In this document: piece by piece, positions 10,401 to 55,621 of the stretch
Layout of the letters: every line of letters begins with the position of its first letter
How positions within the stretch are numbered: position 1 is the stretch's first letter
Source: Antedon mediterranea
Lineage: Eukaryota > Animalia > Echinodermata
Direction: 5' to 3'
Assembly: GCF_964355755.1 (NCBI RefSeq)
Contig: NC_092671.1
Location: forward strand, 9,858,001-9,922,000
Length of the DNA stretch: 64,000 nucleotides
Program-made: the position numbers and the translations under genes
The notes under the pieces: generated by a model
What the model was told of the DNA's origin: nothing
The model's database searches: none
The model's input: only the letters and a program-made list of their open reading frames with translations

Positions 10401-11099
10401 CATTCACTTAATTGCTTGCTCAATACAATTGTATTCAACTTTCAGATGAGTTTTGTTTTCTTTTACTCATCTTCATGGTTGGATCACGGTTTGTGCATTC
10501 ACCCCTGTGTGCAATGAAGTCCACAAAGGTACTTCTCCAAAATTGTACACCATTATTATACAACCCTTGAATTATTTATTCTAAATGAAGAAAAGACTTC
10601 TGTTAAATTTGTTTAACCGGAACGTCTTTGCATGTTTCTTTTCATCAAGGTGAAATTACATCAAAATACAGCATAAGAAAAAATTAAAAATCAAATTTTC
10701 CTTTTGTTTGCGTAAGTAAATATCTTCCACTCAACATTTGCATTATCTTGATATGAGAAGAAAGTTGTTTTTGCTTTATAGGTTTAAGCCCAGGAAATAA
10801 TACTCCCTATTCATCTATTTCAAATTAGTAGGAATTGAAAACTGTGCTGTACTTATCTCAACTTTCAATGTTTTAACAACATGAATATCAACTAAAGTTG
10901 ACACAACTTTCACGCACATTCCACTCTCGTCAAAACTGGATAACTTTGGGTGGTATCATAATAATTCCAGGTTTTTTTGGCATTTCATAGAGAAAAGAGA
11001 TGTATATATTATTAACCAATGTGTTGATACAAAAAGGTAGCAAATATAACCAATGGCAAAACAGAAGGATTTACTTATTCCATGTGTATAGAACAGTAA

Positions 11100-11393
11100 G
11101 ACCCTATTTACACTTGCGATTTGGGTCCGGCAATCGATATGTTTAAACATGTCATAAAGTTAGGCTGGGCGGGATGCAGACCTGGGCCAGATGCAGACCT
11201 GGGCCGGATGCAGACCTGGGCCGGATGCAGACCTCGACCTCCTCTTGAGGTGGGTCGAGGAGCAGCTTTATGTTTAGGCCAGCATATGCCAATGGCTTGA
11301 GAAAATGAAGTAAATGAATCTTCAGGGCTGTATTTTGGAAAGTGTAAACACGTTGGATCGTCCCACGACACAATCGTAAGTGTAAATGGGGTT
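11100..11393. mobile_element. PIF/Harbinger-like MITE with an internal 17-bp tandem repeat and hairpin, downstream of the LARP4 stop
   Basis: TAA|GACCCTATTTACACTTGCGATT ... AATCGTAAGTGTAAATGGGGTT|TAA. About 4 copies of GGATGCAGACCTGGGCC (11166-11234). Hairpin CCTCGACC...GGTCGAGG at 11232-11260. Confidence 0.7.
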
Positions 11394-12435
11394 TAAGTAA
11401 CATCATGGTAACACACCCATAATGCCACACCCATAATGCCTAATTTAAACCAATAAAAAAGTAAACATAAAACATATAATGCAGGAAATATCTTAATTAT
11501 CATTGAAAATACTAATTGTATAGTAAGAACTATCAATTAACAATTATTACATTTAAGTATTTACATAATATTCTTTTTTTTTCCTCAGAAAATAAAACAT
11601 TTACAAGGTTGTTTTTTTTCTCGCTAAATAATTTGCTCTTTTTTTCAATTTTAAATGGAATGCTCCAACCTGGGAGACTTCTCCACTTTTAAACTGAAAA
11701 AAGAACATCACACTTATTTAAAGAGCGGTGTTCTTATGTTGGCGAAAAAATGGTTAGCACGATACACAAACGTGGTAACGTACTAGTAGGAACATAATAG
11801 CGCCCTCTATATTTATAAACTGGTTGTTTCCCCAAACAATAAGAACCTCATATTCCCCAATTCTTTCACATTTCTTTCAAACATCACTTTTTTTTTGGAA
11901 ATCTTCTCTACTTTCTTCTTGTATTTATTCAGCAAAAGCATTTTCTACTGTAACCACGGCAACTAAACATCCAATAAGAAATCTTTATCCATTATATTTT
12001 CTTTTTTTTTTCTCTCTTTAAAACTTAAAAAGCATGCGATTAAAATTAAAAACATGATCCCAAAATTCTTTTAAAAAAAACCTAAATCCAATACAACCTT
12101 TTCTTTGAAAACTTGATTAAAAAATACTTTTGCTGAAATATTTAAAAGTAAGTGATTAAAAAGTAAAATGTTTCTTAATTTCCATAAAAAGTTCTTTTTT
12201 AGTGAAGTCTCTGAAGTCTTTGTTGATGGCTATACAGCACATCTTTACCAGTACATTATCATGATGATTACCACACGACCTGCTGCTGTGAAATATTCCA
12301 AGCAAATATATCCGGTAAAATTATTCTATATTTTACATCTAGCATCACGTATAGGTCATGGATTGCTATTCATTCATCTACCTCAAAAACCATACTCCGA
12401 AAACCATGCACTTGCTAATCTTTGGCTCAATTCGT

Positions 12436-12738
12436 TTATTTCGTCTTCTGCGATGTCTGGTTTCGTCCGGCAGTCGGAGATCTACGGCCTCCAGGCGACC
12501 TTCGGCTTCCTGGGGAGCTGCGACCGTTTGATCTTCTTTTGTCGTTATCTCTATGGTTGCGTGTAGGTTGTTCGTTCTGGTCACGTTCTTTGTCTTGTTT
12601 TGGATTCGTTGTGGCATTTTTATTAGTTGGTGCGTTCTTTGCAGGTGGGGTATTGGTTTGACCTTGAGTCGGGCAAACTTCCCCTGGTCCTGGCTTCCTT
12701 CGTGCAATTGCAGCGTAGCTGAATTTCTTAGATGCATC
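12436..12738 (-). CDS. LARP4: LARP4-family coding exon 14 (terminal; SYAAIA motif, R/S/P-rich tail)
   Basis: Phase-0 acceptor gcag|GAT. DASKKFSYAAIARRK resembles the LARP4/4B RKPSYAEIC motif. Ends at TAA. Confidence 0.85.
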   Translation of the reverse strand, partial: DASKKFSYAAIARRKPGPGEVCPTQGQTNTPPAKNAPTNKNATTNPKQDKERDQNEQPTRNHRDNDKRRSNGRSSPGSRRSPGGRRSPTAGRNQTSQKTK

Positions 12739-13161
12739 CTGCGTTAACAAATCGACATAAGTGATTATAATAATAATTAATATGTTAATAACAATCAAAA
12801 TTAACAATAAAGTTATATTAACAAGATTTAAAAAAAGTGAAAACATCAGTTAATGCAGTAGAAATTTAAAGACAACAACAGTAAGAAAAAAGTAAATTTT
12901 TCTCCAGAAGACAGTTTAACAACAGAAACGTTAAAACATTTTCAGATCCAGGAGTAGTCTGGAGCTTTATTCCTTAAACTAGTTTGACAGTGTAGACAGA
13001 GCTTCAGAAAACACATAATGTACCGAAAACCGAATTTGCAATGATTTTTCATAAGTAAAATATGTTTGAAATTTATCATATTTGTTAAAAACAGAGAACA
13101 ACACAAACAAATAAAATAGAAATTTAATTATTTTCTCCACGATATACAAAAAAATACTTAC

Positions 13162-13417
13162 ACCAGAAGATGCACATTGTATTTCTGTTGCACTTGTTGT
13201 ATCAGCTGTTTCTTTTGCATTGATGTTACTAGTATTACCTTTGGTTGAAGCAGTCACGGGTACAGTCTCCTGTGGTGTAGGTGACATCTGATTACTGGCG
13301 GGCTTGGTAGTTGTTGTAGACGGGGCCTGAGATGATGAAGGTGTTTCATCAGATGAGCTCACAACGGCTTTGCTAGGCTCACTTGCTGCTTGATAGGACT
13401 TTTTTGTTGACTTTTTA
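13162..13417 (-). CDS. LARP4: LARP4-family coding exon 13 (S/T-rich)
   Basis: acag|T AAA AAG TCA ... TCT GGT|GTAAGT; phase 2 to 0, consistent with neighbouring exons. Confidence 0.8.
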
Positions 13418-14159
13418 CTGTGTGGGAAAAGTAGTTATAATAATTAGGAAAACAATTTTTTATCAATGTTTAAAACCATACAATTAGATGTTAATTACCA
13501 AACTGTCCATGCAATTAGATGTAAATGATCAAACTGTAATATATGGTATTGTGACGCTTGACCAACGAATCAGATTTTTCTTTTTTGTAATAATTGAATA
13601 TAAAAAATGTTATAGAATTTGCATGCACCAGTGAATTTTGTCTTTCAGTTTTTGGCGGTATTATTATGTGAATAACTCAAAATCAGCTTTACAAAGAAAG
13701 AAGAAATATAACCTTAAATCCAACCGATGATGCCGTGTTAACATAAACATTTGTTAAGGCCTTATTACTCTACCATGAACACATATTTTTCTGCATCCCT
13801 TTAGATACATTTTCACGAATGCAAAATTTATTTGATGAGATTTTATTACAAGAATTCTGTAGAGTAAGTAACACTTGCACATATAACTTATCAGTAGAAC
13901 AGCGTGTACAAACACCTCCCACACATTGTCACACATTAATAGTACTTGTATAACGATAATTTACCATCATTAGATGTGTGGGAATGAGAACATCAATACA
14001 GAGTTCACCAACAATTAATAAGCTGCTTCAAACGCAAAGTGCACAAATAAATCTTCAAGGCAACATGGATTTTAATTAAAAGTAACCCCAAAATGGATTA
14101 CTATCATTAATAACATCTTAATGTTTAAAAAAATTTTAATTCACCGGTAAAAAATCTGC

Positions 14160-14720
14160 CACATATCAAGATTTGGAGAGATGTATGGGTTTTGAAATGT
14201 TACAGACAGCATACATAACAAGAATAACTGACGACAATAGGTAGGTGGAGAAAAAGATTTTATAGAGTGGCGACCAAGACCTGGAAAAGTTGAAGACAAG
14301 GAAGAAAAAAAAGAAGGTGGAGATGACATGAAGAGATATTTGAGCAATTTAAACAGGTCGAATGATTGACAAAGGAAATTGAAAATTCTTGAGAAGGGTG
14401 AAATCCAGCAACCACAAAAATGAAAAGAATAAGCGAGAGACCAAGATCAAAAGATAGAAATGGATTGTGCCATGTGATGAGAAGGAAAAACAATAGTCAG
14501 TATATGCCACCAATCTGGTGATTCAAGCGTTGCATCCATTTTAAATAAAGTTGTTATTATTATATTATTATAGTTATGACATGAAAAGGCAGAAGAAGAG
14601 TTGGACGGCCCAAAACAACATGGAGGAGGACAGTGGAAATAGAGAGAAAACCTAGGATGGAGGACATGGAACGAAGAAAAACAAATCGCCGCCAATAGAA
14701 CCAACTGGAAATTGCCAATA
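14160..14720 (+). mobile_element. Degraded 3' fragments of RTE-like non-LTR retrotransposons
   Basis: Remnant peptides such as WRPRPGK and RRVGRPKTTWRRTVE...QIAANRTNW resemble RTE ORF C-termini; frameshifted. Confidence 0.5.
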
Positions 14721-14848
14721 CAGCCATATGGGCCAGGAGGCTCAAAGAGGTTAGGTAGGTAGTGGTGAGGTCATGTGGTGAAATCAAGTCATTAAGCAAA
14801 GATATCAAAACCATCAAAAGTTAAAAGCTATATACAAACTATACAAAC

Positions 14849-15021
14849 CTTTGTGTATTCGTCGTTTGTGGTGTTATAGGTGTTGATTTGTCAGGCTCTA
14901 TAGAGTTTGTAGGTGACACGCCAGATTTAGATGCAGGAGAGACATCAGATTTATTAGCTTGAGTTGTAGTTGTTGAACTACTTGCGTTCACGGTTTTAGA
15001 ATCTTGAGTTTTAACTGCTTT
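14849..15021 (-). CDS. LARP4: LARP4-family coding exon 12 (S/T-rich)
   Basis: ttcag|AAA GCA GTT ... CAA AG|GTTTGT; open frame KAVKTQDSKTVNASSSTTTTQ...; phase 0 to 2. Not present in the ORF track. Confidence 0.8.
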
Positions 15022-23874: not shown

Positions 23875-25067
23875 CTAGAAATTAAAGATAAAAAGCAAGA
23901 GTTTGTCATGAAAGAGAACATATATGAAGCGAATAGATTATTATTGCGACATCCAAAAATCTTTCTCAATCATCATTATTATTGTACTGTACATATTTGT
24001 AGACAGTACAAATTTGTTTTGAAGAGTTTTCACGAATTAAAAATAATCCACAATTGCATGACATCAAATGTTCAGTTTAATCTATTATCTTCAATTGCTA
24101 TAATGCCACAGGCATACATTTAATACAATAACCAATGTTTTCATGTATTATAAATCTGTATATGAAAATAATCTCATCTGGTTTCGGTCTAGCATAATTT
24201 CATTGCTATGTGATTATTCGTACTGTATACAATGTATTCGTTAGTAATACGGGGCAAACCATAAGCGATTTGTTATAGCTTTCATTTGTTATTGGTGAAA
24301 AAGAAATCATGTATAATATTTGAATTTTATTGATTTAACAAAATCTGTACTGTACTGTAAATAGACTAGAAAGAATGTTAGTATTTGCAGAATGGCATGA
24401 TGGGTAACATGGTTAGCTTATCAATACAGAGGTTTAGGTTTAAATCCTTCCAGTACCAGGATTTTTCTCATGATCAAGATAGACACACTACCTTGGCCTC
24501 TATATTATAATTGGAATTTTATTAATACTAATTACTATATTATAACTACTGTACTGTTAGATGTGACATTTGGCAAAGTAAAATATTCTATAAACAAATA
24601 TGTAATATATATTTTCCTGTATTCAATTTAATAAATTTGACCTGTATCTTTAAATTACTAGAGGTGAAAGACCATAGTTCACGCATGAATACATTGTTAA
24701 CAAATATTATCCATTAAATTCAGCTTCTTAGCTCGTCCGCAAGGAATATGCGATACACCGAGACGCTTCAAAATTCAAATCGAAGTAATTACAAAATTCT
24801 GACGTGCTTATGTGTCATGTGATACACGTTTTATGTCACATGACACGGTAAAACGCGTTTAAAGCATGTGTACTCTTCAACAGTTCAGCTTACATATTCA
24901 TTTTCATTAATTTAGTGACTAGGAATAATTTATTCTTCCAATTATGTCTCAGTCTATTTTAGACACAGATAATATCAATCTAACTCTGTAATACCTTGGT
25001 GAAATTAACATATCCACAGCATTTGTAAGAGTGGTGGATGAATTTATAAGCAAGTAAATTTAAATAA

Positions 25068-25600
25068 GGAGTGAATGAATAAATAAGCAAATAAATGAGT
25101 GAATAAATAAGTAAATAAATAAGTGAGTGAATAAATAAGTAAATAAATAAGTGAGTGAATAAATAAGTAAATAAATAAGTGAGTGAATAAATAAGTAAAT
25201 AAATAAGTGAGTGAATAAATAAGTAAATAAATAAGTGAGTGAATAAATAAGTAAATAAATAAGTGAGTGAATAAATAAGTAAATAAATAAGTGAGTGAAT
25301 AAATATGTAAATAAATAAGTAAATAAATAAGTGAGTGAATAAATATGTAAATAAATAAGTAAATAAATAAGTGAGTGAATAAATATGTAAATAAATAAGT
25401 GAGTGAATAAATATGTAAATAAATAAGTGAGTGAATAAATAAGTAAATAAATAAGTGAGTGAATAAATATGTAAATAAATAAGTAAATAAATAAGTGAGT
25501 GAATAAATATGTAAATAAATAAGTGAGTGAATAAATATGTAAATAAATAAGTGAGTGAATAAATATGTAAATAAATAAGTGAGTGAATAAATATGTAAAT
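25068..25600. repeat. A-rich minisatellite, about 28-bp unit AAATAAGTGAGTGAATAAATA(A/T)GTAAAT
   Basis: Roughly 19 tandem units built from tetranucleotide-like subunits. Confidence 0.92.
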
Positions 25601-27270
25601 CTACAGTAGTGAATGGAAGAATGACTGTGTAAATAAATTAATGATTGTGAAAATATATGAATGAATAAATAAATGAATGGCTGGTGACAGACTATGACTT
25701 CTATAAGAAGTAAATTTACATTATGTTTAATTATTTCAATCAGCATGACACAGAACTGACTCAAGTTGTCTTAATGATACTGCAACTATGACATTAAAGA
25801 CAAATTGTAAAAAGTGAGGGCACTTTAGACAGACACTGGTCATATGACTCATCTAATATCAATAATGCATCAACTCATTCACAAATTATCAATTCACTGA
25901 AACCATGAAACGTATAACACGACCCGTTTCTCAAGCTTAGTAAAACACTGACTTCAATAAATCAGCTTGCCTAGTTTGTTCGTAGTAGACTTTAGCAGTT
26001 TAATGAATGAAATTCTAGTAAACAACCACTTCCGGAGATTATGATAAATTATCGCAAATTCGAATTAAAAGCCGGATTGTAGAATCCATCATCCTACTGG
26101 ATGTCAAAGTAATACAAAAATAGCAATAACAGATTATGGCATCACCATGACAAACTAATGAAAAAACGATCAAATTGAATTAATGAATAATAATAATTAA
26201 CAGAGAATTTCAATAAACTATTATGCTAATTTTATTCCGTTTTTATTCTCCTTAATTTCAATGGTTCATTATAATAATAATATAAAATTATTTAATTAAG
26301 CATTAACTATAGGTCAAAGCTTACGTTAAAAGTATGCAATGTAATTTGCATCTGATAAAATTAAAATATAAATAAAAACAGATTTTGTACTATAGTATGT
26401 AGTATTTTTACTAAATTTATATATTTTTGTATTGTAAGATGGGTAATTACTGACTGTGATGGCTTTTTATTTATTCCAGTTTTGTCTCTTCTTCAAGCAT
26501 TGGTCAAATAGATAATGCAATATGAAAGGGAACTAAATGTAATTGAAATTTCTTTGATACTAAACACTGACTGGTTAATATTCAGTTCTAATATGTCCTT
26601 TCTCATGGTCTACTCAAACAAACGGAATAAAATAAACAACAAATATGAATGAAAAAAAAGACAATTTGCTAGATTGGCCTTCCCACACACCAACTAAAAT
26701 AGTAGATTGTGCAATATAGAGAACAAAATTCAACCATGGCCATTAAAACATCAATCAAAAGCCGGACGCAATAACAACTTTTTGTGAATGACAATTAATT
26801 TATCAAACAAAAGAACATTCAATCAAGAAGCCAGATTTTATACTAGAATTTAATTGGTATAATTTATTTATTTGTTAAGTACGGTATAAATAATACTCAT
26901 TCTTCACAAAACAATGACGTATGTCATTTGATGAAACAAACGTTTGTTGAATTTGAGTGTAGAGTTTGTATACTGTACATTAATGACAATTTGTTGGTCT
27001 AAAAATTTGATAGACTTGATACAAAGATACCCCAAGGAAACATCTTGGCAGCTAATTTTTATAATGGTACCTCCAGAAACACAGTTAACAATGCAGAGTG
27101 ACACCAAGTCAACATGCTATTAAATAGATTAAACAAAAGGAAAAGTTAATTTATCTTAAAGGAAAACCATTGGAATATAAAATAGCCACAATTGCACTGT
27201 CAGAATTTCAAGATTTAGAACCACAGAAAGCAGTATTGGAAAGTAAACAGCTTTAGCATTAAATTACTTT

Positions 27271-29554: not shown

Positions 29555-29848
29555 CTGTAACGAGAATTATTTTGACAGAAAAAAAAACCAAAAAGTGATT
29601 AGACTATCAAGAAAACAAACATTGAAGTTGTCTATGAAGTAAAAAAAAACTAGTTTAATAGTAATTAAAATTTCAAATTTAATGTAACTTGCAACTGACA
29701 AAATTAAAGGATTAAAATTAAATCTTAATATTTATACAACAGAAGAAAAAATTAATTTATGGAAACAATTCTGCATATAAAAAAGCACTTAAATTGATGA
29801 ACGAAAAAATTAATAATTCATTTGTGTAATACGAGAGACATTGTCTAC

Positions 29849-29985
29849 CTTTAAGTACAGCAATAATAAGTCCTATATCTGTTGTTAATCTCTTAATAGC
29901 GTTGAAATTTGCTATCGTCCAGATTGGCACATACTGGTCTGCGTCCATTTGAGACTGAAGATAACGATCATTCGTTAAATTCTCC
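29849..29985 (-). CDS. LARP4: LARP4-family coding exon 5 (La motif)
   Basis: [46 protein letters not shown]; phase 2 to 1. Confidence 0.96.
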
Positions 29986-32900
29986 CTGAAAAAAAAAATA
30001 TGTCCATTTAGAATATTAACAATATCCATAATAAAAATTTAATTAAAAATTTAAAATGAGCAAATAATCAAATTTAATCCAATTGAAACCATCTTGAATA
30101 ATATTAAAATTTTAAATGTAAATTAAAAATGAGCAAATAATAATAATAAATAAAATTGAATAATCTTGAATAATTACTACTAACATGAATGTAAGCAAGT
30201 ACTAAAAGATTGAACATATTAATATTATTATTAAAATATGGTATTGACAAGATAAATATTACATCTGCACTATTTATTAGGCAAGGCTTGTAACAATGAT
30301 AACAGGGAAATAAGTGTGTCAGGGCAAGTCAATTCCTTCCGCCAATATACTGTCTTCCACTACATAAATGTTTGTATAACACAGAAAAATATAGCTTTAA
30401 TAATTTCAAATTATATATTTCTAAAAAAAATACAGGAAGCTATCACATTACAGAATATAATTTAAGAATAGATGTATGTACTTTGAACAAACATAAAATA
30501 ACAGTATAATTTTAATTATATTTACATATGGAAGATATAAATCATCATATAAAATAGTAGTATTGCACAATACCTGAGCAATAAAATAAATTACAGCGAC
30601 TTTGGGTAGGAGAAAAAAGGGGAATTTTAATGACTAGGATGGAACTGCCGGAAATAACAATCACTTAAAATGAAAGAACTATAAAGAAACCACAGTAAGA
30701 CAATCTTGATGTTGAAAGCAAAACCTTCTCAAAATCACATTAAATCAATTTGCGGATGGACTGAATATTAAAATACCTAAATATATCAGTTGAAACCGCA
30801 TCTTACATTTTTGTGAAATTGCATCATTTACTTGCTAAAGCTAACTAGAAATACAAAATGTCTTGTCTATCAAAATAGCTCAGTTGAATATTAAAAATCT
30901 TTTGAGAATTCCTCATAAAATTCAGTTGACAAAGTTTGAAATTGACAATTCCACCCACTGTTGAAAAGCAATATATTAAATAGACTTCATAAAGGTTAGA
31001 AATTCTGTCACCTTTTCAACATTTCACAGCCAATTCAGCGTTTATTGAATTTACCATAATATTTTACTGTACATGGTATATTTTTGGCAGTGAAGTACTC
31101 ATGCTCATTATACATACCGTAGGTTCAGACTTTCCAACACATTGAAAGGCAGCTTTGGTTTTTTTAATTTTTTTTAGCAGGACCACCCAAAAAGTACTAA
31201 AAATATGGTATTATATACTTAATGCTTTATACCATATTTTGTGGATCTCTCTCTCTCTCTCTCTTAGAAACATTTTCTGTCATTCCTACATTACGCTTTC
31301 AATGAAATTACTGATCATCATAATTTTGTGGATATGCAGCAGAAACAGACCCCAAGAAATTGAACATGTAAACAAAAGATAAATTTGAAGATGACTATAT
31401 GTTATTGATAAGTATAACTAACATTAATAAAACTAGCCATTTAATCCAAAGCATTACGAGAACAATGCTTAATAATGTAAAACGACTTCAGTCGGTACAG
31501 ATACTGTAAGTATCTGCTATCATTGCTGTGTATTCATTCAGAGATAATAATTGGCCCTGTGCCAAATTCGACATGTTTTAACTTGATTCAAAATAACTGA
31601 GCAAGTTGCAATCAAACATTACCATATGGGCACAGACGGTAGATAAATTGTATGCAAACTTTTAAAGCACACAAAGTCGTTTTATCACGTCACCTATAAA
31701 CTACATTAGCATATTATTAGCATATCATTTGCATATTATATGATACAATTTTGGAAGTTAGATATACGTACGAATTACAATGTTAACCAATAAATTAAAT
31801 GCTAATTTCTTAATACAAAAACTACTGTATTATTGTTATTATTATTATTATTATAATTAATTAACAAAACATTTATTTAATCAAAATAATTAATTTTAGA
31901 AATTATTAAAATTGTTTATTAAAACTGTAGTGATTGCTAGCGTCATCGAATAATCATCACATTATTATAATATCAAGCTAATTAGCATTAAACACCAACA
32001 ACTCAGATCAACAATATGTTCATAACACCTGTAAACTCACACGCGTGGTTAATAACTCATTATGTAAATTACTGATCACTGTCCAGCACGACAAATAAAT
32101 GAAAAGAACAAGATATCATGATTGCCGTTGAGAATATTATGAGCCAAAAATAGCTTGGCTATTTTTAATGTTATAAGGAGAGAGAAAGAATAAAGATTTC
32201 ACTTTATTTGTAATAGTAGTTTTTATTATAAATCAATATTTGTTATACTTCCTCCTAACACCAAAACAAAACCTCAAGCAAATAATTAAAACATAATCAC
32301 ACTTTAAAAAACTTCTTGCCTTAGGTTATAATTATACATTTTTAGAATCTTCAACATCTACTTTCAATTATAAAATCGGTTGCAAGATAATTGTTAGGTT
32401 TGAGACATAGAGACTGGTTCTGGTCTAAGCTATGGAATATATACCCAGCATTTCTTACATTGTGCATACCAATTATCGTAGCCCTTATTTTTCTCATTTT
32501 AATCTCAATTGCAAAAAAAATCCCTGCATTGCATTAGTGGTTTTTTCAAGTTGGTTTTAATAGCATTTTGGTAAATTTTTTTTATAGACATTGATTTAAG
32601 TTATCTTTATGTTTGAATAATGCTCTCCAGATAGTGATGTAGAATTTTATGGCAACATAAATCCTTTTCAAAGAAAACCAGCAAAATACATCATAAATTA
32701 TTTGAAAGTTGTTTCAGACATGTCCTACAACATCATTATCATTATTCTTTTTTTTTTTTGTATTTAAATACAAATTGAACAATTTATAAATAATGATTTT
32801 CATTTCACAATTAACGAAGATTTATGTTTGAAAGAAAAAGACATCACTAAATGCAATTTAGTGTTAATAAAAACATTCTTAAAGCTGAAAACTTTCGCTT

Positions 32901-40000: not shown

Positions 40001-40905
40001 ATAATGATAATGGCCTGCATGACTTTTTTATTGTCAAGGCAAACTACTGTAACTTTATTTTTTCAATTTTAATGTTATATGTGTGTACAGAGAAACAATA
40101 ACAACAAACAAAGGCATGGACCTATATACTGTAGATCCATTGTCAAGGTATGTAATACTGCAATATAACATAAGATGGAGAGATGCAAATATGTATGAAT
40201 ATCCATGTAATTGATATTCTTCCTAAATATTCTTCTGTCAGAAATATTTCTCAAATAAAGCAATGAGGAGCAATGGTTGTTGTTTTGCTTGGCCTCTATA
40301 TGCAAGATTCAATTCAGAAAGTATTATATTTGGTGGTAACTAGTACTAGCATCTTGTCAGATTATTGAGTTGAATAATGCATAAAAAACATTTTGATCAA
40401 TGCTAGTTAACAACTGCGTAACCCTAAAACTGAATAACTCTTAACTTATCGGTCAAACAACACCAACTGTTTGATGAATGACATGTTTTTAAAGTTGCGT
40501 AACATTAGTCTAACAGTCTATTTCGTGGAATTCGGCCACTAGAAGCACTTGGCTAATCATTCTGGAATATTTCAAGTTATTTTTCGCTAAAAAGGTAATC
40601 TACTTCTCTATTGTACTTTAATGGACATTCGTTTATTATATGAAATTCCCCAATAATAAATTATATAATATATCAATTTCTTTTATATTTTAATATGTTA
40701 AATTTTGATAAGTTTTTGTTTTATATTTATTTATTTAAAAATATATACAAATTTAAGTTAAATTGGTAAAAGGTGAATGTCACTTGGGTTAAAAATGAAT
40801 TACCTTATCCTTGATTGTACCACATAAATAAATACAATTATCAAATATAAATAATATATCAATATTATTATATACTGTATATATTTATAATAAATATTAT
40901 ATATA

Positions 40906-41677
40906 CCGTAGTTCCTCGGGTATAATCCCACCTCGAGTATAATCCCACCCCCGACTTTACGATTACCTTCGCACGCAAGCATATCCCCGGGCAAAGTCCC
41001 AGTGTATAATTTATCATTAGGACAGAGGTAGGCCTAGCTAGCTAGGCCGATTTTTTTAAAAGAAATTCTCACCAAAAAATAGAGTCATTTCTCTGAATTC
41101 GGCTGACTTAAAACTCATCAAACATTGGCCATCGTAAAGTTGAATACAACCTTAATATCATCGCCCCGATCTTCGCGTTCTGCACATCATGCATTCGCCG
41201 CACACTCGCTCGCCGTGTACATACACTGCATGCCTTGTTTACACTACTGCATGCTCGATTACCATAAAATAAACACCGCCCTCTATACCGACAGGAGCAG
41301 TACTGTAGTTCGTGTCACATGCAACAACATGCGATTTGCACAGAGCTCGAGCGTGGGGAATCGGGAGGAGAGACGGAGAACTCGTATGAGTTATGTCGAT
41401 ATTATTTAGGAAGCCAGCCCCAGATCACATTTTAGGGTATTTCTTAAGTAGAAATCTGGAAGAAAATCTATACAGTAGGCATAGACCAATTAGGCTGCCT
41501 AGGCCTAGATGACCTGGCAGTCTAATGTCTAGGCCTACATTGGAATATAGCTTTAGATAGCCTAAATGTTGTCATTTTCAGTTCATGCACCGGGAAATCC
41601 CCGGGTATAGTCCCACCTCCCAAATTCGGGCAAATTTTACGTACAAGGGGGGTGGGATTATACCCGAGGAACTACGG
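40906..41677. mobile_element. 772-bp non-autonomous Tc2/pogo-like element (MITE)
   Basis: Perfect 27-bp TIR CCGTAGTTCCTCGGGTATAATCCCACC at both ends, TA on both flanks, and extra sub-terminal copies of GTATA(A/G)TCCCACC. Confidence 0.92.
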
Positions 41678-41704
41678 TATATGTATTAGCTTACAAAGAA
41701 ACAG

Positions 41705-45768: not shown

Positions 45769-48321
45769 CTGCAAAACAATACGACAGGAAATATTTACTT
45801 TGTTAGTAGAAAGAGAAATAACTTCACATACAGAAGAATACCTCTTTTGGAACACTCCTATTCAATGGGCATCCCAATAAGGAGAAATATGTTTATTGTC
45901 TATAAGGACCAAAAGGACAGTGTCCCCATATTAAAGGTTCTACTGTACTAAACCACATTAATAAGGAAACATCCAATATTTATTTTCGCAATTATTTACA
46001 TACAACCTGTCCTATTGGTATATAAGTACCCTAGGCGTTGTTTTCTGTTCTTCTGATGATGAGAATAGTTTCTTGACACATGTCACATTTTAAGGCAGTT
46101 TGCCTATTCATTATGCCTCGCTATAGTTATTTTAACTGTACAACAAAACAAATCAAAATATTGGTCCCACTTAACCGATGAATAATTTTAGAGCCTGGGA
46201 TTTCTTTCTTTATTAAACAGCTGAATGAGTGGTATTAGTTTTAAAATTACCTAAATGATTGTAGTAATTGAGTATACCCAGATCAATAATATAAACGTTT
46301 TTTTTTTTTTAAATCACGATACTGTAGGTTAAAAAATTATTTCATTTGCTTTTATTTCAGAATTTTATGCACAAACGAATGTTAATCATTCATATCAAAA
46401 TATATTCTATTAAGAAATTCTAGTATGTTTAGTAGGATTCAGTCAAGTATGTTAATCATCAGCAAGCTTTAATGGTGTATAGCAGAAATGAGTAATTGTT
46501 GACAAGACAATAAGAATTCAATTTAATAGATATTTTCGCTAACGCAATCAATCATCAACATCAAGTTAGTGGGTCTATTCTCTCAGATTATCCTTCAAAG
46601 ACGTCATGGGACAGGAAAGTAAGACTAGATATTTTATGCACAGTTTTTTATGACCACATAATAATGCATTTGTGTTCTCTAAACAGCCATTTAATATGTG
46701 TGCGGTGCAATACTATCTAATACTACTACAGTATATGATACATTTTGCAGCTGACCTTTTCATTTTAACCTTTAGTCAGGTCTTAGCGAAACAGAAGTGT
46801 TGTTTTTCTAGTTCATGATAAATCTAGCCTCTGCTATTCAATATCACTTAAAACCTACTCATAGCTTTAATGATTTCGCCAATATGCTACATAAATCTAC
46901 ATAAATCTATACGTATATATATACTGATATCATATAATATTAATCAATTTAATCTAAAAAAATCCTATTCATTTTTATTCATTACATGACTGAACTAACA
47001 AAATATACAGCAAACTGTGATATGAATAACTGAATAAGCAAACATGCGGTTTCATCATTTTTATTTTAAAATTTGTTTATTCATAAATCATAGTAAATTG
47101 CATGACGGGTTCCTGTACAAATGTGGTTTAGTTTCAATTTATTATTATTACCGTACTGACTCGGGTATAAGCCCACCCCCCTTGAACATGAAATCACGTC
47201 AAGTTTGGGGGTTGGGCTTATACCCGAGGATCCAAAAATGCAGATCGTCAAAAACAGCACATGTACACTGTGTATTCCACCATGCGAGCGAGCGCCCTCA
47301 CGTGTACGACGTTGCCTCTACTAAATACACGAGGTGTACAGTACCGGACAGAATTATTGCAGATTTTGAACGCATTCAACGCATTGTTAAAGTGTTGACA
47401 ATGCGTTGAAACTGCGTTGTCCGTTGGCGTTGAAAGTGTTGAGTTCGTTGAACTGTTTATTCAACCAACACAATGTGTTGCGTTGAGTTTGCGTTGAAAT
47501 AACAATCGTATGTTATTTACAGATTGCCAGTGTGTATTAGTAGTAGTAGTAATAGTATAAAATACAGTATTACAAATAATGAAGAAAACAAACATAATGT
47601 GTATTTTTCCGCGGAAACTAATAATAAATTACACAAGGCTAGGCCTACTACTAACGTCGTAACGAGTAGGCCTGTGTGTATATGAGCTACGTCTGCCCTC
47701 GCATCTACAGTAGCGGTCATGTCCTCAATTACTGTGTGCCTACCGTATATTAAAACTGGAGTAGTAAATACCCATGTTAAGGCGGCGGTGAATCATGGAG
47801 GTTAGGCCACATCGTAATTAATTATTTCCAAACTAAAAACTTCGCAGTACTACATTTCTCAATTGATTGTAAAAACTACGTAGCCTATGCCAGTCGTGTG
47901 GAAGGCAACAATACACCAACATAATTTTACGATCTTTGGTCGTGTCTTTTTCACGCATGCTTTTCGTGACGTACAGTATGGGGGAACGAACTGATCGTCG
48001 AAAGGTGAAGAGTTCATTCATTATGAAATAACGCGTAATTGCAAGAAAAAATCGTTTAGTTTTATTATCCCTAAAATTATCATATATTATATTATAAATT
48101 AATTAATTAATTATTGTGACGCCTAATGTAACCCATGCAGAGAAAAGCGTTAAATAGAATAACCAAGAAATAGGAATGACTAATCTGATGCAAGACAATA
48201 AGGCAATGTTAGGCGTTTTCTTTAAAATCAAAACCTTATTGTTCCTTATAATAACACAATTGTATGAATGGGATGGGAGTTTTTGCGAAAGATTTTTGTG
48301 GACACATTCGAAAGAAATTTC

Positions 48322-49185
48322 ATGATGAAAACACCTTGCACTACTAGATCCAGAATTATACGTTTACGCGACCGTGGTAACACTGTCAAACAGATACAGG
48401 AAACGCTCAACGATGATGGCATAAAGGTACACGACACAACGATTCGGCGAATTTTGGAACGATTCAATAGCAATTCGACGATTGCCGATAAAGCTCGCAC
48501 TGGCCGGCCCAGTAAATTTAGAGACGAACACTTGGCAATTATAAACAATGAAATGGATGCCAACTCAGAATTGAATTCAAGTAAGTTGCGGGATATATTG
48601 GAAGAGAAAACAGGCTGTACATTTTCAGACAGATCCGTAAGACGACGACGTAGGAGACTGGGATGGGTTTGCGAAGGTGCAAGATATTGCCAATTAATAA
48701 GAGTAAAGAATCGGATTGATCGATTTGATTTCGCAGTGAAATGTATACGAAATGCCGAACAGTTCAAACGTGTTATCTTTACAGACGAATGTACAATTGA
48801 ACTTGATAATCACGCTAGAATTACATTTAGGAAGCTGCATGAACAACCGAAATTGAAACCTAGGGCCAAACATCCAACAAAAGTACATGTATGGGCGGGA
48901 ATTTCTACAGAGGGAGCGACGCCAATAATCATATTCGACGGGATAATGCGGAAAGAATTTTATGTGGACACGATTTTAGATCAAGTATTACGTCCGTATG
49001 TTTCAGCTAAGTTCACAGATAACAAATTCCGTTTCATGCAGGACAACGATCCCAAACATACTTCGCGTTACGCTGCCGATTATTTCACAAGAGAGAACAT
49101 ATATTGGTGGAAAACCCCGGCGGAGTCACCAGACCTTAATCCCATCGAGCTTGTGTGGCATCAACTTAAAGATTTTTTACGAAAG
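48322..49185 (+). CDS. Tc1-family DD34E transposase, exon 1
   Basis: Paired-like HTH N-terminus, RTGRP linker, poly-R NLS, VIFTDE, VWAGIS and FMQDNDPKH...SPDLNPIELVW with 34 residues between D and E. Donor AAG|GTAATT. Start placed at MMKT; an upstream in-frame ATG at 48268 is possible. Confidence 0.93.
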
Positions 49186-49344
49186 GTAATTCAATTCATC
49201 TTTTATTGGTCTAATTCTCATAATGTAAGTAAAAATCGGTGTTCATACACTGCAGTTTAAAAACAATGTTTAAAACATTTTAATTGTCTACGAAATTGTT
49301 TATAATTATTCTGTATAACGTAATTTTACGATTGTATTTTATAG

Positions 49345-49500
49345 GAATGGAAACCGATGGTGAAGGCTGAACTGGTTGCAGGCATCAATCAGTTTTGGAA
49401 AACAAAGATGAACCGTAAACTGTGCAGGAAATATGTATCCCATCTGAGAATCGTCGTACCTGCTGTTATTAGATGCAAGGGACACGCGACGGGTTACTAG
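49345..49500 (+). CDS. Tc1-family transposase, exon 2
   Basis: Acceptor ttttatag|GAA. EWKPMVKAELVAGINQFWKTKMNRKLCRKYVSHLRIVVPAVIRCKGHATGY* matches the typical Tc1 C-terminus. Spliced product is 339 aa. Confidence 0.9.
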   Translation, partial: EWKPMVKAELVAGINQFWKTKMNRKLCRKYVSHLRIVVPAVIRCKGHATGY

Positions 49501-49726
49501 TGCCGATTTATTTCGAGTCTCATTTATCTCGCGTTTTTAATATTGTGTTTAGTTTAACGAATGTAATATATAATGTTTAGTTGCCATTTATCTCTGGAAA
49601 TTACGCTTAGTTAAGTTTTATGCTGTACATATTTACTGTGGTATGATCCATATTTTAATGTGTACTGTATTATTAAATTCCTTATTTCAATCATGCTATT
49701 ATATATATTATATATTAAAGTATACA

Positions 49727-49950
49727 ACAAAAAGCCAAACTATAATTGCAATTGATTTTATTTATTTATATATCAAAGACCTAGAAAACAAACGAAAGGA
49801 ATAAAAACAAAAAGCCAAACTATAATTGCAATTGATTTTATTTATTTATATATCAAAGACATAGAAAACTATAATTACAATTTAATTTTATTTATAAATC
49901 AAAGACATAGAAAACAAACGAAAGCAATAAAAACAAAGGCTAACAATGGC
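49727..49950. repeat. About 80-bp AT-rich tandem duplication between the convergent transposase and cargo gene 3' ends
   Basis: ACAAAAAGCCAAACTATAATTGCAATTGATTTTTATTTATTTATATATCAAAGAC occurs twice at a period of 80, plus degenerate copies. Confidence 0.8.
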
Positions 49951-50011
49951 AAAGAATAAAAAATAGTACAATTTAAATACATTACAATTACAATATAAGT
50001 TAAATCTAGGC

Positions 50012-50746
50012 CTACTCTCGTTGGTGTCTCTGTTTAAATTTAATTTGTCTACGTGCTGAATCAATTGACTTAAGGCATTCTTTCCATCTAATATCAATTT
50101 CTGCAACAGGGGCAGGCGCTAGGTTAAACACTTCAGTCTTAATGTAGTCCAGTCTAGTCGCGTCGAGTCGAGCAGCGCCGTTTCGTCCTGACGTATTGCA
50201 ATTGCGTCTTTCTTCTTCAGTAAAGAAGTATTCAGTCAATAGTCGTGCCATCTTTAGTCGGTCGTCAGTAAAGCTAAGTAGTCGTCGTCGTAAGTCCTGT
50301 GGTATTTGATGTGTATCATTGTCATTGTTCAATGGTGGTTGGTGTTGTGCTGCTTGTGGCTGTTGTCTGATGTTAGTTTGTTGTTGTAAAGTTGCCATAA
50401 TGTCAGATACCTGTTGATGTAGTGTTGCGATTTCGTTTGTTTTCTGGTCCAGTAGTTCTCGTAGCTGTTTGTTTTCGTCCTTTATGTCTTTTAGTTGGTC
50501 TTCCGTACGTCCCAGTCTAAGTTCAAGTCGGTCTTGGCGACGCTCCATCTCATTCTTATCATCCCATCTGTCACTCGCAAATGTCATTTCCTTGTCGTAG
50601 TCGTTGGTCAGTTCGTCTAGTGTCTGGTCTGCGTTGTGGAGGTCGACGTTGTCGGTGTCATAGATCATGAATCTGTTCTCAAATTCTTCGTCAGAGTCAG
50701 CAGTTGGTGGTAGCGGCGGATGAGTTACTTCTATAACTGTCGCAGC
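50012..50746 (-). CDS. Cargo gene exon 3: coiled coil plus C-terminal BEN domain
   Basis: Acceptor atgtag|GCT is in frame with ORF 50012..50668. Heptads RLGRTEDQLKDIKDENKQLRELLDQKTNEIATLHQQV. ARLLTEYFFTEEERRNCNTSG...LDATRLDYIK...WKECLKSIDSARR fits the BEN pattern. Confidence 0.88.
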   Translation of the reverse strand, partial: AATVIEVTHPPLPPTADSDEEFENRFMIYDTDNVDLHNADQTLDELTNDYDKEMTFASDRWDDKNEMERRQDRLELRLGRTEDQLKDIKDENKQLRELLDQKTNEIATLHQQVSDIMATLQQQTNIRQQPQAAQHQPPLNNDNDTHQIPQDLRRRLLSFTDDRLKMARLLTEYFFTEEERRNCNTSGRNGAARLDATRLDYIKTEVFNLAPAPVAEIDIRWKECLKSIDSARRQIKFKQRHQRE

Positions 50747-51120
50747 CTACATAAAATATAAACAAAAGAAACTTCATTAATCGACCTGCAAAAATTACGT
50801 AATTAATAAGGGACACATGTACAGTTATGGTTTTGTTTTTTTGTTTTTTTTGGTTTGGTTTCAAGGTATTAAAGATGTATTGTTTCCCCAAAACCATGAA
50901 AAATTAAAATTAATAAAATCTGACTATGAATGGGTTATTTTATAGTTTCAATAAAGTTACTCACTTCGGCAAAAAAACCCAAAACAATTTGACTATTTTT
51001 TGCTTTAAATTACACATGTTAAGGTAAATACATTTTTTCAAACAAATTTTTGGTAAAATCTATGCGACATTAACATTGTGATAAGTAATCTAATACAATG
51101 TCAACAGAATTTAAGCCTAC

Positions 51121-51354
51121 CTTCTTTGTAACATCGACAGTACTCTGACGGCGTCTTCTTTTTGGTGCAGGTTCTGGTATGTTATCTACATTATCGCCAT
51201 CACCATCATCACCATTGTCGTCATCATCACTATTGTCGCCATCATCATCATTGTCGCCATCACCATCAATACCATCGTCATCTTTGTCAACTCGTTGGTC
51301 GTCTGCCTCGGTCATAAATTCGTATGGGATCGTTTCCCCCGTTTCTGCTTTTAC
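51121..51354 (-). CDS. Cargo gene exon 2: D/G-rich acidic tract and NLS (PKRRRR)
   Basis: atacag|GTA AAA GCA ... AAG AAG|GTAGGC; phase 0 to 0; open frame. Confidence 0.85.
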
Positions 51355-51781
51355 CTGTATCAGAAAAAAATATTTAGTTTAAACATTTGCCATACATTTA
51401 AAAAACGATACATTGGTTGGGTCAAGTATTTTAACTAACAATAAATTTAACAATATCATTTGTGGAAATATGTAAAACAATTTAATTAAAAGGTGACTTA
51501 TTCCTTAACACTTTTTAAAAAGATGCTCGACTTTGAACTAAAATATCATAAAACAAAAGTGAATGAACCTATAACGAAATAAATAAACCATAGATAATTA
51601 AGTATTTTAACTAACAATAAATTTAATTTAAAACGGGCAACAATAGGCCCCTATCATTTTTGAAAATATGTAAAACAATTTAATTAAAAAAGCGACCCCT
51701 TCCTTAACATTTTTAAAAGAGATGATCGCCGTTTGAACTAAATATCATAAAGCCAAAAAAATATGAATGTCGATTACTCAC

Positions 51782-52093
51782 CTCTGATGCAAATATATCA
51801 TTAAACTTAACAGCAACTACTGGTCCTCTCAATCCTGACGCAAGTACTCGTTGGACCAGGTCTCCTCTTTGTAACTTTTTAGGGTCGCCTGTCTCCGGAA
51901 AGTGTTCGCGGTTGATCTTACATTGTCGTTTCTTCATTGGAAGTCTTACGTACTGTAATTTGACGTGGCTTACAGAATTATAGCCAGTCCAGGATACTAC
52001 AACGGCATCGGGATAAACTCCCTTAACAGTTCCTCGTAACCAAATACCAGAATCTGGGTCAATAGCTTGTACAGCTTGTCCGCGTTTAAACAT
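51782..52093 (-). CDS. Cargo gene exon 1: Tudor/Agenet-like beta-barrel
   Basis: aaaATG start. FKRGQAVQAIDPDSGIWLRGTVKGVYPDAVVVSWTGY...VKLQYVR fits a Royal-family barrel pattern. Donor GAG|GTGAGT, phase 0. Spliced product is 426 aa. Confidence 0.8.
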
Positions 52094-55000
52094 TTTGTAA
52101 CAGTAATATAATATAATTCGATAATGATCAGCAGCAACTAAGATTGGAATGGTGGAAAAACTGAGTATTGCTAAGGTTTTTATGCTTATTTCCATGAATT
52201 GAAATATTTATATTGTTTTTTTACAATAACTGACCGTCACAAAAGCCATTGTTAAAACTAGAGCGGCGACGACTTGAAACGCGTTACCGATAACAGCGGT
52301 TTCACTATTGATGTCACTGACGCATTGTTGAACGTTTCATCAAAGCTCAACGACTTCAACGTGTTGAACGCTATTGAATTCCATTGTCTAACGTATTCAA
52401 TGAACGATACGCGAACGCTCAACGGGTTCAACACATTCAACGCGCTTGTTTTTAAACATAATGTTTTATTGGATAATTATTTATTTATTTTGGTATACAA
52501 GATAAGAGGAAATAAAGGCCGGTATACAAACATTAAAAATTCCCAGCCAATATTAAGTAACACATAAATGATAGTAGTATAATATACAATCTACCTTATT
52601 TGATTTAGTAATTAAAAACAAACATTTCTAATGAAATAACATGCCTTGTGTAAGCAAAATACCCTTTTAAATACAAAATACAGTGTATTCTAATATAACA
52701 TTTGACAGTTCATCAATCAATATTGTTTGTATTGTTTTCGGCCACAAGTAGCGATCAGGGAACGCGAGACCATGTTCGTTGACTCTCTTCCTCATTTGCT
52801 TCCACTTTTAAGCGCAGTTTCTGCTGCCAAAAAAATACGGTATATATACGTCCGGTATTAAAAAAATACCGTATAAAATACGGTATTTTCTTGGCAGCAG
52901 AAACAGGGCCTTATATGAGTATCAGTCAATGTTTATTATTATTTATGATGCAGTCGTATTTTGAAAATAAGGAGATAATTCATGTTTTTGATCTCGGGAG
53001 TGGAGGAGGATTGAGTGTTTTTGAGTTTTATAAATTAAAGTTATGAGTTCAACCAAATGTGTTTATTGGTGGTTTTGGTGCTATTAGCTACTGAGTTGTT
53101 CACCGGAAAATTTAAGGGTGGGTTACTATTTTCAGATTCCTAATTTAAGATTAGTAATAGTAACCCCCCTTCTAATAGTAACCCACCCTAAAAAACAATC
53201 AAATAATAGTAACCCATAAATACGTAAAAAGTTATTAAGAAAAGAAACACCGTTCCGTTGCTTTATCCCTACCATAGACCTACCATATCATTAACCATAA
53301 CATTATTATAAATTAACATTCACGCCTAATGTAACCCACGAAGAAGAATAATTAGAATAACAAAAACAAAACACCGTTAGTTTTATTAATATATTTATAG
53401 GTCTATCTCTTAAATTTAATATACATTACAACTACAATGTTATACGGTAAGTCTACGGTGCCATACCATATTATTTACGCCTACAGGTAGGTGTAACCCA
53501 CAAATATTAGAATAACAAAACAATTCAGAATAAAGAATTATTCTGATGCAAGACAATATAGTATAGGTTAGGCGTTTTCTTTTACCATATTATTGTTTCT
53601 TGTTAATAATTACTTTGGCCTGCAACTGTATGAATGGGATGGGAGTTGCGAGAATATGCGAGAGAACAGTCAACATTTCAAACACTTACAGTGTACCGGA
53701 TAGAGTGGAGCGCATTGTTTGATGCTTTTCAAAACGCTTAACGTTTTCAACGCGTTCAACGCTATGGAAATCAATTGTTTAACGTCGTCAATGAACGGTC
53801 AACGGGTTCAACACATTCAACGCGCTCTATTGTTAACGTATTCAAAACGCTTTGTTGTACTTAAAAATGTAAATGTAATGTTGTTCGATTTATATATTGG
53901 TTCAAAGGCGTCGACACGTCGCATTTTTTAGTTCTTTAAAATTACATGGGACCAATTACAAAATAAAAACCAAAATAGAGAAACATTATTTTAACTTTAT
54001 TTCTTGAATCCTCTTGAATCTCGAACAGCTAAAAAATGTAGGCCTAAATAAAATTAGTTACTTCGTCGTCTCATTAACGATCGTTAAAATACGTCATAAC
54101 ACACGTGGTGTTTTTCTTGAGGAACCGGAAGCCGGAGTGGCGGCCTCGTGTGTTGATTTTTCAGTTTACCAGGTTGTTTGATTTTACGACGTGAGATCGT
54201 GTTTTTCTCGTCAGACCTACAGTACAGTGACTGTTAGTGTTAGGCTTAGCATCGACCTTATTATTCGATGTTTTCCTTCACTAAACACTGGGAAATAAAT
54301 TAACACTGAGGATCACTGTGTGTTTTATTTGGTAACTGTCTGTTCAATACATAAAATATATAATATGAAGCTATATTTTGTTTTATATTAAAATATCTGG
54401 TAGTGACTGCCGATAGGTATTTTGCCTGTTGTTGTTACTGATCGTTCAGGCGTGCAATCGGCCAGTCAAGTGCTGCAGCAGCTAGCGTTGAAATAACTAA
54501 TTGTTTACTTGACATGCTGATAATGACTTTCGTTGAATAAACAACTAAACGTTGAAAGCCGTTCAACGCAACGCAAACACAACGCAACGACAACGTGTTG
54601 AATGCGTTGGGATTTTTGCAATAATTCTGTCCTGTACTGTAGAGTGTCGGAAAATTAAGCTTATAGTTCGTGTAATTTATCGTAGAATATTTTATTTTAA
54701 ACATCAATTGAACAAGAATTTATCAAGCAGAAAAGCAAGTATACAATGTTCGTTAAATAGAAATGTACCAAAGAAATTTAATAAGCTTGTTTATGGCAGC
54801 CGATACCAAATAGTGGTTTGCCGTTTTGGCGACTTGTAGCGTCATGTGTGAAGCGATCTTCGACCGCTATGGAGTGTAAACAAAACAGGACCGCTAGGCC
54901 TCATATGGCCTAGCGTATATTAGCCTAGCTTGGTTATGATCAAAGGTAGGTGTATTCGGTGTATGGACGTCGCCAAATACAAAATAATGTATTACGACAC

Positions 55001-55621
55001 ACACTGTAGATCTTCAAATTAATGGGTGGGCTTATACCCGAGTGCCTCATTTTTCATGAAAATTAGTCAAAAGTCGGGGGTGGGCTTATACCCGAGTATG
55101 GGCTTATACCCGCGTCAGTACGGTAATCAGAGAAGTTTGTACACACGTTAACTGTAAGTTGCTTGGTTTTCATTTAATGTTATTAATGTTATTATATTAA
55201 TATTACTTTTCTATTATTAATATAATGACTGCATTCAACATTTAAGCAGGGTACAGTTTTGCGTAATTCCTTTATTTGTAATGATTTAGTCAGAATTAAC
55301 TGCATCTACAGTTCTGACTTCTGTATAGTGCTGAATAAACCATTTATTTCAATAAAATCATTCTTAGACTGACCGCATTTCTGCTAAATTTGTGCTCTCA
55401 ACTAACCGAATAAATTAGTTGGTAAATGACAAAAACCTTAACGTATTACCCAAAATGCAATGTGATCGTTCAATTGTTCACGATTCTACAGTACAGCTGT
55501 CAATCAAATTTACCGTTATTTCGTGGTGAAGCTAAAAGTTGCAGTGATAACCGGTAAATGGCGTTGAATATTTTATAAACTATTTGTGTCAGAATACAAG
55601 CAATTTGTGCTTTCAGCGAGT

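Follow-up and report, generated by a model that had tools for sequence, protein, structure and literature searches.

The gene that occupies positions 50012 to 52093 on the reverse strand of a 64,000-nucleotide stretch of the Antedon mediterranea genome (contig NC_092671.1; the whole stretch is hereafter called the window) is predicted to encode a protein in which Tudor-like modules are joined to a BEN domain. It raises two questions: to what does such a gene belong, and what might its product do? Because the answer to the first is a transposon, we refer to it below as the accessory gene. Its exons are as follows:

52093-51782, reverse strand: accessory gene exon 1, 104 aa
51121..51354, reverse strand: accessory gene exon 2, 78 aa (aa 105-182), with the end of barrel 2, the acidic tract and the basic stretch
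50012..50746, reverse strand: accessory gene exon 3, 244 aa plus stop (aa 183-426)

Homologues were collected with HMMER, exon 1 being searched against 1.84 billion proteins; of the 30 hits, 27 constitute one family, and the other three were excluded as Agenet repeats (P0137), canonical Tudor repeats (P0141, used only as a bridge in alignment) and a spurious match (P0144). Neither exon 1 nor exon 3 had a homologue in word-index searches; the homologues came from the full HMMER search. Ten of the 27 homologues are at least 340 aa long and are treated as full-length; seven of these match Pfam BEN at an E-value of 0.01 or better, and a BEN profile built here matches nine of the ten at the C-terminus. 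The source was checked for 24 of the 27, and the 13 that are named are all from echinoderms, representing 8 species. The homologues are patchily distributed, with several per genome, and are 33-43% identical over exon 1.

The original prediction, that three open reading frame fragments are joined through phase-0 GT-AG introns, is backed by homologue matches across both junctions. The introns are 427 and 374 nt long, both GT-AG and both phase 0, and joining of the window sequence gives one frame of 426 aa, laid out from N- to C-terminus as two barrels, an acidic tract, an NLS-like basic stretch, a predicted coiled coil and the BEN domain. The open frame alone is little proof because 30 GT/AG splice combinations keep it open, and it is homology that picks the three-exon model. 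At the first junction the exon 2 residues Y115 and E116 are matched in 11 and 12 of the 27 homologues, respectively; most of the others end or diverge past residue 105, as unspliced gene calls would, and two homologues (P0128 and P0133) are identical until this junction and different afterwards. A V-x-K-K-A-like motif spans the second join in most of the full-length homologues. By these sequence comparisons the three-exon gene is real. The one read run guessed to be RNA (X5) contains no joint at either intron, leaves most of exon 1 uncovered, and has no weight either way. Elsewhere in the window, a long simple tandem repeat at 24980-25770 yields spurious open reading frames, and an exon at 29757-30038 on the reverse strand presumably belongs to a host gene of the La-motif (LARP) type, which it resembles.

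The predicted protein has the following parts:

51935..52093, reverse strand: barrel 1, predicted Tudor fold (aa 1-53), with a partial cage of D12, L19, W35 and Y38
51782..51874, reverse strand: barrel 2, first part (aa 74-104), ending at aa 120 in exon 2
51178..51309, reverse strand: acidic tract (aa 120-163), encoded by 9-nt repeats, with 23 of 44 residues D or E
51148..51165, reverse strand: NLS-like basic stretch PKRRRR (aa 168-173), from sequence
50378..50557, reverse strand: predicted coiled coil (aa 246-305), from a simple heptad score only
50045..50254, reverse strand: BEN domain (aa 347-416), PF10523 at an E-value of 1.2e-7

The N-terminal region was recognized by structure. Pfam and PDB sequence searches with exon 1 and its profile gave no Tudor match, an SH3 identity (CD2AP, E-value 0.045) was rejected as weak, and modeling of exon 1 from its sequence alone gave a poor model (pLDDT 52.8) with no Foldseek match at an E-value of 0.001. 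The sea-star homologue P0139, which is 37% identical to exon 1, was modeled from 28 sequences; 124 residues of the model reach a pLDDT of at least 90, and it contains two strand-rich modules. The first of these superposes with VIA-align on TDRD3 (Z 9.7, 0.9 Å, 51 residues), SMN (Z 9.4) and UHRF1 (Z 8.9, 1.3 Å, 55 residues, 27% identity), the top matches covering residues 1-55 only, that is, barrel 1. Foldseek with the same model ranks the UHRF1 tandem Tudor best (E-values of 1.3e-5 to about 3e-4), followed by plant Agenet H3K9me readers, FXR1, 53BP1 and SETDB1. Atlas leads for the N-terminus are Tudor and Agenet, under 0.9, and exon 1 matches the Tudor protein P0141 pairwise at an E-value of 2e-7. 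As modeled on the homologue, barrel 1 is a five-strand, SH3-like Tudor fold, and the suggestion of a Tudor-like N-terminus thus holds.

The second barrel, which had been proposed as a similar module across the junction of exons 1 and 2, is sustained as a module and loses its similarity. In the homologue model it has five strand elements at high pLDDT, the last of which straddle the junction (aa 104-107, 112-114 and 118-120), and its N98-D99 pair is invariant among homologues; it has no separate structural match and was modeled jointly with barrel 1, and we consider it a folded module, probably of SH3-like type. Its sequence likeness to barrel 1 is insignificant, as 241 of 2000 shuffles score as well and the hhalign probability is 2%. 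Foldseek alignments across both barrels of tandem Tudors have TM scores of about 0.3 and rmsd values over 10 Å; no known two-barrel arrangement was matched by the whole domain, a result that does not in itself make the arrangement a new one.

The ligand pocket of barrel 1 was mapped by alignment through P0141 to SMN, whose cage roles (including the Y109 position) we take as given, together with the aligned ranges of the UHRF1 superposition. The pocket positions are D12, L19, W35 and Y38, and D12, W35 and Y38 match UHRF1 residues 145, 188 and 191 by range arithmetic rather than by residue-level alignment. All three aromatics earlier suggested for a cage (W18, W35 and Y38) are present at the numbered positions, and W35 and Y38 map to the cage; W18 is invariant (27/27) yet lies beside the cage, the cage position itself (SMN Y109, UHRF1 F152) being L19, which is Leu in 22 of the 27 homologues. 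D12 is kept in 25, and residues 35 and 38 are aromatic in 26 and 27 of the 27, respectively; the pocket is therefore under selection. The UHRF1 cage is formed by F152, Y188 and Y191 (PMC10464304), so that two of its three aromatics are retained, and the UHRF1 acidic pocket (D142, E153; PMC10464304) is not kept. Models described in the same source have incomplete cages with a hydrogen bond binding mono- or dimethyl-lysine.

Between the barrels and the BEN domain the protein is less uniform. The acidic tract, which had been likened to those of histone chaperones, is present in the window protein and strong in six of the ten full-length homologues, but is missing from four, including both of the Holothuria genes that adjoin transposases (see below), and a histone-chaperone role is therefore not the core function. 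The predicted nuclear localization signal and coiled coil are both found, the former as PKRRRR from aa 168 (basic clusters are present in nine of the ten full-length homologues), the latter as a heptad pattern at aa 246-305. The BEN assignment is likewise confirmed, at 32.2 bits against a Pfam cut-off of 23.2; the domain also matches BEND3 (E-value 3e-4), and the best solved match of the family BEN profile is BANP (E-value 7e-9), followed by BEND3. S409, S412 and R415 align with BANP S310, S313 and R316, which are helix-5 base contacts of the CpG type, and the site of NACC1 R469 is Gln. BANP R316 marks CpG-binding BEN domains, and coiled-coil oligomers select unmethylated CpG (PMC11472053). 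The corresponding arginine is kept in nine of the ten full-length homologues and is absent from several non-echinoderm elements. The pairing of BEN with BTB domains, coiled coils or further BEN repeats, as recounted in the original prediction, agrees with section 5 of PMC8887127.

The accessory gene sits within a 7,301-bp Tc1-type (DD34E) element at 47339-54639, and is convergent with the element's transposase, which lies on the forward strand. The features of the element and its insertion site are:

47147..47175, unstranded: left inverted repeat of the high-copy MITE that hosts the element; partner at 55099-55127
47337..47338, unstranded: TA target-site duplication, left; an empty site with a single TA is in the reads
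47339..47361, forward strand: left TIR, starting CAGTAC; 25 nt including the TA, 96% complementary
47369..47498, unstranded: left subterminal CAACG/CGTTG cluster
48268..49185, forward strand: Tc1-type DD34E transposase exon 1 (HTH domains and catalytic triad)
49345..49500, forward strand: transposase exon 2, after a 159-nt phase-0 GT-AG intron
52342..52460, unstranded: CAACG cluster, 255-349 bp upstream of the accessory ATG
53539..53840, forward strand: diverged duplicate of the region preceding the transposase, 74% identical to 48181-48281, with a second CAACG block
54486..54608, unstranded: right subterminal CAACG/CGTTG cluster
54617..54639, reverse strand: right TIR, pairing with the left TIR over about 25 nt
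54640..54641, unstranded: TA target-site duplication, right, from reads and sequence

The transposase is an intact frame of 357 aa with a complete DD34E triad, 34 residues separating the second D from the E (PF13358, E-value 2e-15), and N-terminal HTH domains (PF01498, E-value 2e-8; PF13565, E-value 3.5e-8). The TIRs and the TA duplication are those of the Tc1 family (ITm), whereas a length of 7,301 bp and two spliced genes depart from the single open reading frame and length of about 1.3 kb described for it; the element is a two-gene variant of the Tc1 type. Reads also contain the unoccupied site, where a single TA lies within a high-copy MITE. This MITE (47147-47336 and 54642-55127) has TA-CCGTAC ends, internal GGGCTTATACCCG repeats and a high copy number, and pieces related to it lie near 40904-41679. 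The right part of the element looks composite from its sequence, resembling a piece of a non-autonomous relative. The region 53440-53840 also copies the repeat block at 52321-52455 in diverged form, and a high-depth derivative in the reads joins 48236 to 53458; many non-autonomous derivatives are present in this host. Small high-copy repeats lie within the element at 50880-51040 (accessory intron 2), 52812-52909 and 53111-53193. Transposase intron positions vary by lineage (804-1912 in L001, 7818-9057 in L018 and 49186-49344 in the window). No relative of the transposase was found in viral contigs, and structure matches among viruses were weak and unnamed only.

The pairing of the two genes extends well beyond the window. 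In Holothuria leucospilota, P0122 (KAJ8049555) is consecutive to transposase P0030 (KAJ8049556) and P0146 (KAJ8026315) to transposase P0025 (KAJ8026316); the genes and transposases came from separate searches (2 of 2 accessory genes and 2 of 5 transposases checked), and consecutive accessions are taken as neighboring genes by GenBank practice, not by map. An identical P0025 sequence appears under two accessions, each on its own contig, which points to recent movement. On animal-type contigs of five prokaryote assemblies, 27 related transposase loci were counted after exclusion of weak matches and of those that were clearly bacterial and IS-like, and a convergent BEN match lies within 2 kb of 18 of them; one of the remaining nine has a convergent BEN at 6 kb and eight have none. 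Seen from the other side, a convergent transposase accompanies 18 of the 25 BEN loci. With random placement the mean is 0.2 such linkages and the maximum 3 in 5000. The BEN profile used in this count derives in large part from the loci it counts, and eight of the 18 linked loci share a contig and seem to be a single family, which is why an independent check with the Pfam BEN model matters; in the five genomes all three of its matches are convergent to a related transposase, 0.3-6 kb away.

Individual loci differ in detail. In L001 a related spliced transposase is followed by a BEN gene in tandem (E-value 1.5e-9) rather than convergently, matching TIRs in L018 enclose both the transposase and the BEN gene, and L004 has matching TIRs with no BEN match inside. 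The 16 BEN-linked transposases fall into 15 groups at a 75% identity cut and are spread through one clade with SH-aLRT support of 100, in quick-search, midpoint-rooted trees made without named Tc1 reference elements. The contigs that carry these spliced animal-type transposons (G001:C9, C14, C17; G002:C3, C4; G003:C87; G005:C72, C76, C182) reach 2.6 Mb and look like host contamination of the prokaryote assemblies. Two further BEN domains terminate open reading frames of 1475 and 1779 aa (L013 1096-5520 and G001:C17:2455322-2455585), neither of which is paired convergently with a Tc1 transposase, and L013 also contains, at 9435-14874, a Cys-rich transposase-like frame within long inverted repeats.

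The N-terminus is the variable part of the family. In the non-echinoderm elements the BEN gene opens with another small module, which shows no detectable likeness to the echinoderm one (hhalign 0.4%; the family profile matches in none of the five genomes), and a Tudor step is therefore not universal. This module has three aromatic positions (L006 11974-12153, L007 16630-16824, L010 4511-4705, L018 11012-11224, L001 2694-2858); Pfam, searched with that of L001, and PDB sequences gave no match for it, and the idea of a permuted or hybrid Tudor was not supported.

We conclude that genes of this class regularly form the second gene throughout a Tc1 clade, as a family trait, and that the accessory gene is very probably dedicated to the element. 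Like factors of the VANC and TnpA type, it is encoded within its element and kept with it. Among sister copies in the host reads, 14 of the 28 listed changes in exon 3 are silent, against 22% expected (p about 9e-4; 40 of 181 rows, with one stop included and transition bias ignored).

CAACG/CGTTG occurs 37 times in the element, against 5.7 expected, the block near 53750 listed above being a duplicated one, and the CpG observed/expected ratio is 1.29 in the element against 0.62 in the rest of the window. The high CpG content may only reflect a young insertion. Subterminal repeats in Tc1 elements are the usual sites of the transposase, and the CAACG/CGTTG repeats may simply be such sites; L004, with no BEN match within its TIRs, carries repeats too. 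The CpG arginine and a CpG-bearing end repeat occur together in the window and L001 and are both absent from L018, an anecdotal agreement among three elements only.

We propose that the accessory protein binds the CpG repeats of its element and counters silencing, a reading to which we assign somewhat less than an even chance. The coiled coil would form an oligomer, as in BANP, and the BEN oligomer would bind the CAACG/CGTTG clusters, both the terminal ones and the one ahead of its own gene. On nearby chromatin, the partial cage (D12, W35, Y38) would read methyl-lysine, H3K9me3 being less likely than a low methylation state or some unusual ligand. The net effect would be sequence-specific protection or activation, in which ends and promoters are kept unsilenced, as by VANC or TnpA. 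Several observations count against this protective reading: the BEN-less L004 has repeats and repeats are usual in Tc1 elements, the F152 aromatic and the acidic pocket are missing, and several BEN factors are repressors (PMC8887127). The wider proposition, that an animal Tc1 lineage encodes a sequence-specific anti-silencing factor, consisting of BEN and in echinoderms fused to a double-Tudor reader of repressive marks, we regard as rather doubtful.

A somewhat improbable alternative is that the protein is a transposition cofactor, which binds the subterminal repeats and the transposase and pairs the ends or steers insertion through its Tudor barrels. The Myb-like protein of Harbinger is a precedent for such a cofactor. 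The TnpA-TnpD pair is another (PMC1636069), and the linkage of the genes, the repeats under both ends, TIRs of only about 25 nt, and the persistence of the pairing across the 15 transposase groups all suit this explanation. The transposase has HTH domains of its own and a full triad, however, ordinary Tc1 elements are single-gene (PMC7325037), L004 has matching TIRs in the absence of a BEN match, and the repeat cluster just upstream of the accessory gene suggests transcriptional control. That same cluster, ahead of the gene's own start, would also suit a self-limiting repressor or insulator that dampens or confines transposase expression and so lessens harm to the host, as would the repressor activity of several BEN factors (PMC8887127) and the convergent layout kept in most loci; but the closest solved BEN domain is that of BANP, a binder of unmethylated CpG islands, and the many non-autonomous derivatives in the host do not suggest tight restraint, and we consider this explanation unlikely. 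That the gene is a passive passenger, taken up from a host on a single occasion and of no use to the element, is very unlikely, even though its introns are like those of a host gene, N-termini and orientation vary between lineages and some loci lack the gene, since linkage over many lineages and several hosts, the excess of silent changes among sister copies, and the patchy, multicopy, divergent homologues, unlike a conserved host gene, all stand against it.

Tc1 elements are textbook one-gene transposons, and the clade described here keeps a BEN gene over many lineages. What is new is a Tc1 clade of two-gene elements whose accessory gene encodes a BEN protein and, in echinoderms, the fusion of that protein to a double-barrel, Tudor-like domain that has a partial cage and belongs to an unannotated family without a Pfam model. 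A literature search, with Repbase and subscription journals outside its scope, found no paper on BEN genes in Tc1 elements, and the available parts of PMC13269885 and 10.64898/2026.08.24.746577 contain nothing bearing on the pairing. Annotated 'uncharacterized BEN' genes of echinoderms can be reinterpreted as transposon genes. One protein, one repeat motif and two promoters make a small, directly testable system for studying the ways in which DNA transposons of animals oppose or exploit host chromatin. If the proposed function is true, the gene would be an animal counterpart of plant VANC and TnpA, and elements of this kind could be a source of many lineage-specific BEN genes of invertebrates.

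Second open reading frames are known in L31 elements. Among ITm elements, extra open reading frames are described in the ciliate Tec and TBE elements (PMC7325037) and in yeast Dici (PMC13469147), as in the window element; the additional proteins there are a recombinase, a zinc-finger protein, a transposase relic or of unknown kind, and none is named as BEN or Tudor in the available sections. With the Tc1 family of the IS630-Tc1-mariner group, which Dupeyron et al. (2020, PMC7325037) describe with a single open reading frame and a length of about 1.3 kb, the window element shares the DD34E triad, N-terminal HTH domains, short TIRs and the TA duplication, and it differs in being 7.3 kb long and spliced, with a second gene kept across its clade. 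TLEWI is a spliced Tc1-like transposase in marine invertebrates (bioRxiv 10.1101/656579), but is DD36E, lacks TIRs and looks domesticated, whereas the window element is DD34E, with TIRs and a second gene; membership in TLEWI was rejected on the triad and the TIRs.

The modules of the accessory protein also have host counterparts. BANP and BEND3 (PDB 7yuk, 7v9f; PMC11472053) share the BEN domain with a CpG-reading arginine and, in BANP, a coiled coil before it, but they are host transcription factors without Tudor barrels, and K314 is Ala in the window protein. The tandem Tudor of UHRF1 (PDB 4gy5; PMC10464304) shares the fold of barrel 1, over the superposition given above, and differs in F152, which is Leu here, and in the acidic pocket; over both barrels the alignment with it is poor. 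The closest functional analogy is with VANC of Arabidopsis VANDAL (PMC10398659) and TnpA of maize En/Spm (PMC1636069), which are the proven sequence-specific anti-silencing proteins in the cited papers, both from plants; these too are transposon-encoded, non-transposase proteins, with short repeats in the non-coding parts of their elements, although those of the window element may be transposase sites. They belong to Mutator-like and CACTA transposons, respectively, and the likeness is one of function without shown homology, the window protein being built of BEN and Tudor modules and its comparable activity being a proposal.
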